From the sequence record NC_019399.1: 64,000 nt of DNA; one strand, given 5' to 3'. The DNA comes from Escherichia phage vB_EcoM_ACG-C40. Shown in pieces: positions 38,589-39,742 of the stretch (position 1 is its first letter; each line of letters opens with the position of its first letter). The position numbers and the translations under genes were made by a program. The notes beneath the pieces were generated by a model. It had not been told where the DNA came from and did no database searches. It was given only the letters and a program-made list of their open reading frames with translations.

Positions 38589-38616
38589 TTTATTCTCCTC
38601 AGTAGTAGATAGGGTA

Positions 38617-38646
38617 ATAGTATCACTACCCTATCTAAAAGTAAAC
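38617..38646 (-). promoter_or_regulatory. early promoter (GTTTAC, 18 bp, TACTAT) with a palindrome around -10
   Basis: gtaaac 38641..38646; atagta 38617..38622 inside gatagggta...taccctatc. Confidence 0.6.
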
Positions 38647-38880
38647 TTATTTTTTACGAAAAATTGATTTATTTTCTGCTGCCCATTTTTCAATAACTGC
38701 AGCAGGACCAGTAACAACAATTTTATCACCGTAATCTTCTGCGGCGAGTTGACCGAAATTATCTAATGCATCACGAAGAACTCCATGAGGCATTTCACCC
38801 ATTTTATCTTTCTTGCCAGTGTAAATAAACTCAACTTTTACATCAGCAGTTTCAGCAATAAATTCTTGGTAAGTTTTCAT
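38647..38880 (-). CDS. internal protein I-like (capsid-targeted), 77 aa
   Basis: N-terminus MKTYQEFIAE from ATG 38880 with GGAAA SD; ipI position upstream of 57B. Confidence 0.7.
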   Translation of the reverse strand: MKTYQEFIAETADVKVEFIYTGKKDKMGEMPHGVLRDALDNFGQLAAEDYGDKIVVTGPAAVIEKWAAENKSIFRKK

Positions 38881-38914
38881 TTTGATTTCCATTTGGTTTT
38901 GTTTTGATAGGGTA

Positions 38915-38944
38915 ATAGTATCACAACTAAAACCCTATGTAAAC
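38915..38944 (-). promoter_or_regulatory. early promoter (GTTTAC, 18 bp, TACTAT)
   Basis: gtaaac 38939..38944; atagta 38915..38920; part of a repeat with the next promoter. Confidence 0.6.
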
Positions 38945-38956
38945 AACTTTGTGAAA

Positions 38957-39214
38957 TTATTTTAAATCTTCTAATCGTTTCTTCATCTTAGAACCATTTT
39001 TAGCAATTTCTCCTGCATCGGAGCATAATGCTAAAAGTGCTTTAACTTTAGTTTGGTCTCCTTTAAAAGATGAAGGATCGACCGCAGCAGCAAGTTCTTT
39101 AATACGAGAGAAAAGACGCTCAGCTTCAGCTAAAGCCATTCCAAGCTTTACTTCCATACCGTGGGAAGATTCAGTGATAGTAGTTTTTGTAGCAAACTCT
39201 TTGAAAGTTTTCAT
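38957..39214 (-). CDS. internal-protein-like ORF with variant targeting leader
   Basis: 85 aa; N-terminus MKTFKEFATKTTITE; own promoter. Confidence 0.55.
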   Translation of the reverse strand: MKTFKEFATKTTITESSHGMEVKLGMALAEAERLFSRIKELAAAVDPSSFKGDQTKVKALLALCSDAGEIAKNGSKMKKRLEDLK

Positions 39215-39244
39215 TTTTATTTTCCTAATTAATTTGATGAGGTA

Positions 39245-39274
39245 ATAGTATCACTACCTCATCAGTATGTAAAC
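39245..39274 (-). promoter_or_regulatory. early promoter (GTTTAC, 18 bp, TACTAT) with a palindrome around -10
   Basis: gtaaac 39269..39274; atagta 39245..39250 inside gatgaggta...tacctcatc. Confidence 0.6.
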
Positions 39275-39286
39275 AACTTTGTGAAA

Positions 39287-39742
39287 TTATTTTAAATCAT
39301 CTGCCCAATCGAGTTTAAGAGGCTCTTTGTATTCACGGTCAAGTACAACCGGAATTTGTACATCACCGCTAAATGATAAGGGCCCAACATTATAAGACAA
39401 TGTTATATGCGGTGTGTAATCATCAAAATCGTGTGTAGCACCTAGTGCCCGCGCATACATGTGTCGACAGCGCAGATATTCAGAATCTAGCACAAGTACA
39501 AGAGTCGATCCATCTTGTGTTTTCCACACTTCTAAATGTCCAGAAGAAGCTACTTCAAAACTTCCACTCGATGGAACATACGGAACATTTACTCTCGAAT
39601 AACATATAGTCGAATGAATTTTTTCTCTAGGAACTGGATTAGGAACACGTAAAGAGCGCTGGAGTTCTTCCAGCGCATCAAGTGTTAATTCTGAAAACTT
39701 AGCTGCTACATAAAGACCCGTTGAAAAATCTTTAAATTCCAT
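39287..39742 (-). CDS. 57B: gp57B, 2H-phosphoesterase (T4 57B = anti-CBASS Acb1)
   Basis: 151 aa; two H-x-T/S motifs (HSTICYS, HITLSY); located upstream of 57A. Confidence 0.75.

Follow-up and report, generated by a model that had tools for sequence, protein, structure and literature searches.

The DNA analyzed here is a 64-kb stretch (64,000 nt, referred to as the window) of Escherichia phage vB_EcoM_ACG-C40, sequence record NC_019399.1. The phage is a T2/T6-like Tequatrovirus, and the segment running from 57B (Acb1) to trna.4 is its ipI locus, a site of internal protein (IP) genes. We are confident that this is an ipI-type IP locus with two cassettes, ip5 and ip6, accompanied by ip4 at a second locus near the lysozyme gene e. 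Each cassette consists of an early promoter whose −10 sequence lies in a palindrome, a ribosome-binding site, and a leader fused to a small, family-specific cargo protein. The minus strand carries every gene in this region.

Ip5, Ip6, and Ip4 are already named but functionally uncharacterized T-even internal proteins. The product of ip5 (38957..39214, minus strand, 85 aa) is 100% identical to T6 Ip5 (UniRef Q38630_BPT6) and matched phrog_3499, 'internal head protein', with an E-value of 1.2e-49. The product of ip6 (38647..38880, minus strand, 77 aa; phrog_8111) is one residue from T6 Ip6 (76/77). The product of ip4, or IpIV (30777..31250, minus strand, 157 aa; phrog_3155), is one residue from T2 IpIV (156/157) and matched PF24183 (DUF7412) with an E-value of 2.5e-95. 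All three PHROG matches were full length, with E-values from 1e-49 to 1e-101. The exact Ip5 sequence was present on 205 contigs and the exact Ip6 sequence on 158. T6 carries the same ip5-ip6 pair, T2 carries ip5-ip7, and the annotation of Shigella phage JK08 uses the gene names ip5 and ip6. The ip4 gene sits at the second IP locus, downstream of e, where it stands in for T4 ipIII and ipII.

An earlier note on this DNA, made from the sequence alone, had described three leader-bearing open reading frames (ORFs) at these positions and had likened their layout to the T4 internal-protein locus. The three ORFs exist, all on the minus strand and with the starts that were claimed. The likeness to T4 is also borne out: the neighboring genes are the same, gene order agrees with T4 at both IP loci (57B to trna.4 and adjoining e), and the leaders match those that have been defined experimentally. 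For Ip6 there is an additional in-frame ATG four codons upstream of the start (38881–38892, minus strand), which some annotations use to give an 81-aa protein beginning MEIKMKTYQ. It is probably not the start because it occupies the place of the Shine-Dalgarno sequence AGGA in the other cassettes. The longer N terminus would shift the leader off the N terminus of the protein.

The leaders are MKTYQEFIAE in Ip6, MKTFKEFATKTTITE in Ip5, and MKTYQEFITE in Ip4. A six-frame scan of the window for starts of the form MKT[YF].EF found only these three ORFs, and the looser start MK.[YF].[ED][FLIV] found no further ORF in the same scan. T4 IPII and IPIII both start with MKTYQEFIAE, and T4 IPI starts with MKTFKEFTSTTTPVSTITE. 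The Ip6 leader is exactly the 10-residue capsid targeting sequence of IPII and IPIII, which was reportedly described by Mullaney & Black; the Ip4 leader differs from it at position 9, and the Ip5 leader is a shortened form of the longer IPI type, terminating in ITE. The 10 N-terminal residues of IPIII are enough to direct a protein into the head, with positions 4 and 7 acting in targeting and positions 8 and 10 in processing, and the protease gp21 cuts after the glutamate of L/I-x-E (PMC9026906). All three window proteins keep an aromatic residue (Tyr or Phe) at position 4 and Phe at position 7 and possess an I-x-E site. Ile-8 and Glu-10 are additionally kept in Ip6 and Ip4. The predicted gp21 sites are IAE10 in Ip6, ITE15 in Ip5, and ITE10 in Ip4.

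A natural homologue of Ip5 has another leader of 10 residues, which reads MQTYQTFITE in the protein database and MKTYQTFMTE at locus L016. The swapped leader joins the cargo exactly between the glutamate and SSHG, before the sequence SSHGMEVK. This supports the predicted cleavage boundary and indicates that leader and cargo are separable modules.

Judging from T4 IPIII and IPI, the leader would bind the scaffolding core of the prohead, so that the protein is built into the head. The prohead protease gp21 would then cut after the I-x-E glutamate, between IAE and T in Ip6, ITE and S in Ip5, and ITE and A in Ip4. The mature proteins of 7–16 kDa would remain with the DNA and be injected together with it. 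The scheme proposed for expression, packaging, and processing of Ip4, Ip5, and Ip6 draws on the T4 experiments and on the exact conservation of the determinants.

The cassettes are delimited by three promoter-hairpin elements, all on the minus strand. Element 1, between 57B and ip5 (39215..39298), contains a 33-nt block (39266–39298), the −35 sequence TTTACA and −10 sequence TACTAT (39273–39245), a hairpin (39235–39264), and the Shine-Dalgarno sequence AGGA. Element 2, between ip5 and ip6 (38881..38968), contains the 33-nt block at 38936–38968, the promoter at 38943–38915, and a hairpin at 38899–38946 with an inner stem at 38907–38938. Element 3, between ip6 and trna.4 (38589..38646), closes the cassette array on its downstream side and has the core GTGATACTATTACC, a promoter (GTTTAC..GATACTAT) at 38646–38617, and a perfect 10-bp stem at 38606–38637. 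In each element TTTACA is followed after 17 nt by TACTAT preceded by TG, which makes the promoter one of T4 early type.

The near-identical block that the earlier note had placed before both adjacent ORFs is real. Two copies of a repeat (38903–38972 and 39233–39302) are 86% identical over 70 nt, and their exact common core is a 33-nt sequence, GATTTAAAATAATTTCACAAAGTTGTTTACATA, found on the minus strand at 38936–38968 and 39266–39298 (33/33 nt; 0 matches in shuffles). The 30-mer that had been quoted for the block was faulty, with 2 mismatches and a mixture of strands (GTTTAC was given where the plus strand has GTAAAC), and the note had not said which strand carries the genes. A third copy with 61% identity lies at 38605–38674, upstream of the next gene. 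A second repeat, comprising the ribosome-binding site and the leader codons, relates 38845–38888 to 39179–39222 with 77% identity. The 33-nt block opens with 12 nt that encode Asp-Leu-Lys-stop, the end of the upstream gene, in both 57B and ip5; in 57B these are the last three codons and the stop, GAT TTA AAA TAA. The repeat consequently extends across the end of a gene, as would be expected of a recombination scar.

The −10 sequence TACTAT, with its TG extension, lies in the loop of a 10–13-bp hairpin, with arms TGATGAGGTA/TACCTCATCA before ip5 and AGATAGGGTA/TACCCTATCT before trna.4. The element that precedes ip6 has a 7-bp stem and a larger loop. Folding energies, with z scores against shuffled sequences, were −17.8 kcal/mol (z −4.15) for the hairpin of element 1, −18.1 kcal/mol (z −4.23) for element 2, and −19.5 kcal/mol (z −3.73) for element 3. 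The palindrome-flanked −10 of the earlier note is thus upheld, TACTAT lying in a hairpin loop with z about −4. Transcripts that start at an element's own promoter hold the 3′ arm only, so the hairpin would be expected only in read-through RNA or in DNA.

The core GTGATACTATTACC occurs four times in the window. The fourth promoter-hairpin element (19270–19317, minus strand), 19 kb from the IP locus, shares its core and 3′ half (GTGATACTATTACCCTATCAAAACAAA) with the ip6 element. It precedes a 322-aa ORF (phrog_1250, unknown function) and could act as an ectopic recombination partner. The e-to-ip4 intergenic region (31251..31338, minus strand) has an early-type promoter (GTTTAC..GATAGTAT) at 31334–31305 and is near-identical to the e-ipIII region of T4. 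It contains a weak palindrome only, and its predicted fold was not better than those of shuffled sequences (z −1.4).

Comparison with other phages points to exchange of cassettes at this site. In T4, the element between ipI and trna.4 combines the 5′ half of window element 2 with the 3′ half of element 3. In T2, the one between ip5 and ip7 combines the 5′ half of element 2 with the 3′ half of element 1. The joints of both chimeras fall within or beside GTGATACTATTACC. The window and T4 cease to be homologous 34 nt into the leader at one end and at the core at the other end; with T2 as the partner, the limits of homology are 36 nt into the ip6 leader and the ip6 stop codon. These chimeric junctions, as read from the sequences, suggest that cassettes have been exchanged via the promoter core and the leader, with recombination as the probable cause. 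The promoter core and the leader-coding sequence would supply the homology arms with which co-infecting phages recombine, and cargo modules could in this manner be swapped, added, or lost with expression and packaging retained.

The variability of the site was assessed by comparing 36 IMG/VR loci with a recognizable 57B, plus T4 (37 loci in all). The site between 57B and trna.4 holds 0–5 leader-bearing genes, which belong to 16 cargo families; Ip6 is in the largest family and Ip5 in a small one. Among 34 distinct promoter elements the hairpin arms covary, with changes on both sides in 6/11 pairs. Specifically, 67% of cells were paired, as compared with 28–57% when the partner was slid by 1–3 columns, and 24 double-change cells were observed versus 15.6 in shuffles, a value reached by 1/500 shuffles. 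Around one-third of the elements use another hairpin geometry, which dilutes this covariation count. Mismatched arms were seen at junctions in phage T2 (L040 10106–10190) and in the IMG/VR loci L020 and L027. The mismatches in some junctions arise because these are recombinants of two element types, and their existence shows that the hairpin is not needed in every copy for phage viability.

The earlier note had also held that the mature portions of the two adjacent proteins are unrelated to each other and that the cargo differs from the T4 internal proteins. Both statements agree with the present results. BLASTP detected no similarity of the mature parts to one another or to T4 IPI, IPII, and IPIII (best E-value 0.06 in a six-sequence database), and the cargoes are those of Ip5 and Ip6 of T6 and IpIV/Ip4 of T2. 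Mature Ip5 (70 aa) is basic, with a pI (isoelectric point) of 9.2, as is mature Ip4 (pI 9.1); mature Ip6 (67 aa) is neutral (pI 6.5). The structural model of Ip5 (predicted local distance difference test score, pLDDT, of 69) is an antiparallel helical hairpin, which had no significant structural neighbor. That of Ip6 has a ferredoxin-like, generic α/β fold, so the two predicted folds differ from each other. Neither by sequence nor by fold was there similarity to the characterized inhibitors IPI*, Ip2, and Ip3.

Database searches confined both families to the T-even phages. A word-index search of 5.8 billion proteins returned 11 clusters for Ip6 and 5 clusters for Ip5, all from T-even phages. 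A full HMMER profile search with the Ip6 family against 1.84 billion representatives gave 6 matches, 5 of which were IP variants or fragments; the sixth was rejected as a spurious repeat protein. Pfam contained no family for Ip5 or Ip6. A search of the PDB by sequence returned nothing for Ip6 and chance matches only for Ip5 (E >0.7).

With regard to function, the T4 proteins Ip1, Ip2, and Ip3 inhibit one GmrSD enzyme each, a different one in every case (Silas et al. 2025, PMC12373910). By analogy, Ip4, Ip5, and Ip6 would most likely neutralize specific host nucleases that attack DNA containing glucosyl-hydroxymethylcytosine, or another early-acting defense, although this step is less certain than those of packaging and processing. 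To regard the three proteins as candidate anti-defense effectors is a reasonable but unproven inference.

Several observations weigh against an anti-defense role, against packaging, or against exchange through the hairpin elements. When ip4-10 were expressed against a panel of GmrSD variants, no reproducible inhibition was obtained (PMC12373910, section 10, Supplementary Fig. 9). Although T2 and T6 carry Ip4/5/6/7, both phages are subject to restriction by GmrSD-ECOR17 and GmrSD-ECOR21 (PMC12373910), so neither enzyme is a target of these proteins. In structure comparisons the predicted folds, which are generic, had no likeness to any known inhibitor, and mature Ip6, with its pI of 6.5, is not basic, in contrast to the T4 IPs. 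In the literature searched, neither proteomic data on virions nor evidence of injection turned up for Ip4, Ip5, or Ip6, and our searches returned no work on the function of Ip5 or Ip6. No late promoter stands directly upstream of the IP genes. The nearest late-promoter-like motifs, TATAAATA on the minus strand, are at 40340–40347 inside gene 1 and at 31860–31867 before e. The motif occurs 11 times in the window, no more than expected by chance, and these two copies could give late read-through transcripts for 57A-57B-ip5-ip6 and for ip4, respectively. The hairpins have no U tract, and no intrinsic terminator was called in the interval 37500–40500. Finally, the ip5-ip7 junction of T2 has mismatched hairpin arms.

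Three other explanations were weighed. If the products are packaged internal head proteins with a mainly physical role (charge neutralization, DNA condensation, or aid to ejection), the diversity of cargo would be drift in dispensable filler. The basic character of mature Ip5 and Ip4 is in keeping with such a role, as are the small, generic predicted folds, the lack of reproducible anti-GmrSD activity of ip4-10, and the contacts that lysines of internal proteins make with DNA phosphates (PMC3012670). However, all three T4 IPs have specific GmrSD targets (PMC12373910), and mature Ip6 is neutral. Some related phages have 0 cassettes at the site, which implies that no cassette is structurally required. 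Moreover, sequences are well conserved within a family and families are swapped whole, which looks like selection on discrete functions; we consider a mainly physical role unlikely. A far less probable explanation is that the leader has been kept by descent only and that the proteins are unpackaged, ordinary early cytoplasmic proteins. The early-type promoter that each gene possesses, the lack of a late promoter directly upstream, and the missing proteomic record would fit this explanation. Nevertheless, the promoter element is shared by T4 ipI, whose product is packaged (PMC9026906), and the conservation of targeting and processing residues over 16 otherwise unrelated cargo families would scarcely be expected unless packaging were under selection.

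The repeated block might instead be a strong early promoter alone, with an incidental hairpin and no part in gene shuffling. There are six GTTTAC..GATA[CG]TAT promoters in the window, one of them far from any IP gene, and the hairpins are broken in some natural junctions, as a promoter without any further role would allow. However, the 33/33 identity reaches beyond the −35 on its upstream side and takes in the final codons of two distinct genes, window elements are cleanly combined in the chimeric junction elements of T4 and T2, between-phage homology stops inside the core and inside the leader, and the hairpin arms covary. Excision mediated by promoter-early stem-loop (PeSL) elements has been demonstrated in RB49 and phi1 (PMC2839356). 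We view a role as promoter only as improbable, and we favor the reading of the locus as an array of exchangeable cassettes for packaged proteins. As to the targets of these proteins, Ip5 and Ip6 might be injected inhibitors of a host defense outside the GmrSD family, in line with the absence of a reproducible GmrSD effect and with the predicted neutral ferredoxin-like domain of Ip6, which is unlike the basic T4 IPs; we put this forward tentatively, as a doubtful but not negligible prospect. Were it true, the at least 16 cargo families at one site would amount to a ready-made library for counter-defense in the first minute of infection, directed against several kinds of immunity, and the leader and promoter core would constitute an integron-like exchange system.

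The genes around the cassettes are arranged as in T4. On the minus strand, gene 1, encoding deoxynucleoside monophosphate kinase (39984–40748), is followed by 57A (39742–39984), 57B (39287..39742), the 85-aa and 77-aa ORFs, and a 61-aa hydrophobic ORF (38403..38588). The 57B gene (phrog_755) is in the T4 57B position and forms the conserved upstream flank of the cassette site. It encodes Acb1, a phosphodiesterase that counters the cyclic oligonucleotide-based antiphage signaling system (CBASS), as judged by its match to PF23474 (2.6e-60), and is directly upstream of the IP cassettes, which hence adjoin another counter-defense gene. The 61-aa protein (phrog_1692) is like that of trna.4 and, in the T4 trna.4 position, forms the conserved downstream flank. 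Beyond it are two more small ORFs, an ORF for an HNH endonuclease, and nine clustered tRNA genes; Rfam matched the nine tRNAs and nothing else. From gene 1 through to the tRNA region (57A, 57B, IP, trna.4, trna.3, trna.2), the genes follow the order of T4, with ipI substituted. A megablast search with the 1.45-kb region found 98.8–99.5% identity in many Tequatrovirus genomes, and at least 80% of the region was present in 217 records.

The HNH endonuclease ORF (36996–37628, minus strand, 210 aa; phrog_14736, 6e-124) is located between the tRNA cluster and trna.2. At this spot JK08, G9062, and T6 have merely ∼100 nt, and T4 instead has the GIY-YIG endonuclease segB within its tRNA cluster. The ORF probably represents the insertion of a free-standing homing endonuclease. 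At the second IP locus, ipII and denV are both absent on the 3′ side of ip4. A 93-nt G+C-rich spacer (30684–30776, minus strand), whose folding was no better than that of shuffled sequences, is followed by a 196-aa ORF (30093–30683, minus strand; phrog_1488, unknown function).

Much of this picture has precedents. Polymorphic T-even IP genes are the subject of Repoila, Tetart, Bouet & Krisch 1994 (EMBO J 13:4181), as cited in PMC2839356 and PMC12373910, and according to PMC2839356 these authors saw PeSL-like sequences at the two highly variable T-even IP loci. More than 30 IP variants are known, and PeSL-like elements may drive the plasticity of IP loci (PMC2839356). The architecture of the locus has accordingly been described already (Repoila et al. 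1994, then Arbiol 2010 and Comeau 2014), and the modular layout and the anti-defense hypothesis have both been published (PMC2839356, PMC3012670, PMC12373910). What is added here is the explicit chimeric nature of the T4 and T2 junctions, the count of cassette families, and the absence of a structural clue to function. Ip4, Ip5, and Ip6 are present in hundreds of sequenced Tequatrovirus genomes, many of them from phages isolated for therapy, and learning which host systems they disarm would aid the prediction of host range.

The closest counterparts of the window proteins are T6 Ip5 and Ip6 and T2 IpIV, to which they are identical or one residue apart; the ip5-ip6 order is that of T6, and nothing substantial differs. 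T2 has ip7 where the window has ip6, joined by the chimeric element. The T4 ipI locus and its product IPI/IPI* are reportedly treated in Black & Abremski 1974, Bair, Rifat & Black 2007, and Rifat et al. 2008. The slot between 57B and trna.4 is common to T4 and the window, and the upstream promoter-hairpin elements are almost base-for-base alike. The leader of Ip5 is of the same type as that of IPI (MKTFKEF...ITE), and the mature proteins are likewise small, at ∼7–8 kDa. T4 has one cassette at this site whereas the window has two, and the window cargo is without sequence similarity to IPI*, which inhibits the GmrSD of E. coli CT596. The leader of T4 IPII and IPIII, MKTYQEFIAE, is identical in Ip6 and one residue off in Ip4, which is at the same locus beside e, but the cargo is unrelated. 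T4 Ip2 and Ip3 inhibit GmrSD-ECOR21 and GmrSD-ECOR17.

The PeSLs, which are mobile regulatory cassettes of T4-type phages, likewise combine an early promoter with a stem-loop between small non-essential genes (Arbiol et al. 2010, PMC2839356; Comeau et al. 2014, PMC4122927), and they too are concentrated in hyperplastic regions, where they provide sites of homologous exchange. In the window, a promoter and a stable stem-loop are present in a conserved intergenic element, variable genes are flanked by these elements, and the junctions are chimeric. The window elements also match the T4/PST promoter consensus TTTACW-N17-TAYWAT (PMC4122927). The T-even IP-associated elements are, however, analogues and not homologues of the RB49 PeSLs, being based on T4 early promoters and having weaker, AT-rich stems (Arbiol et al., PMC2839356). 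The window elements differ from PeSLs in that the hairpin encloses the −10 sequence and is without a U tract, and in that the leader-coding sequence would provide a second homology arm.

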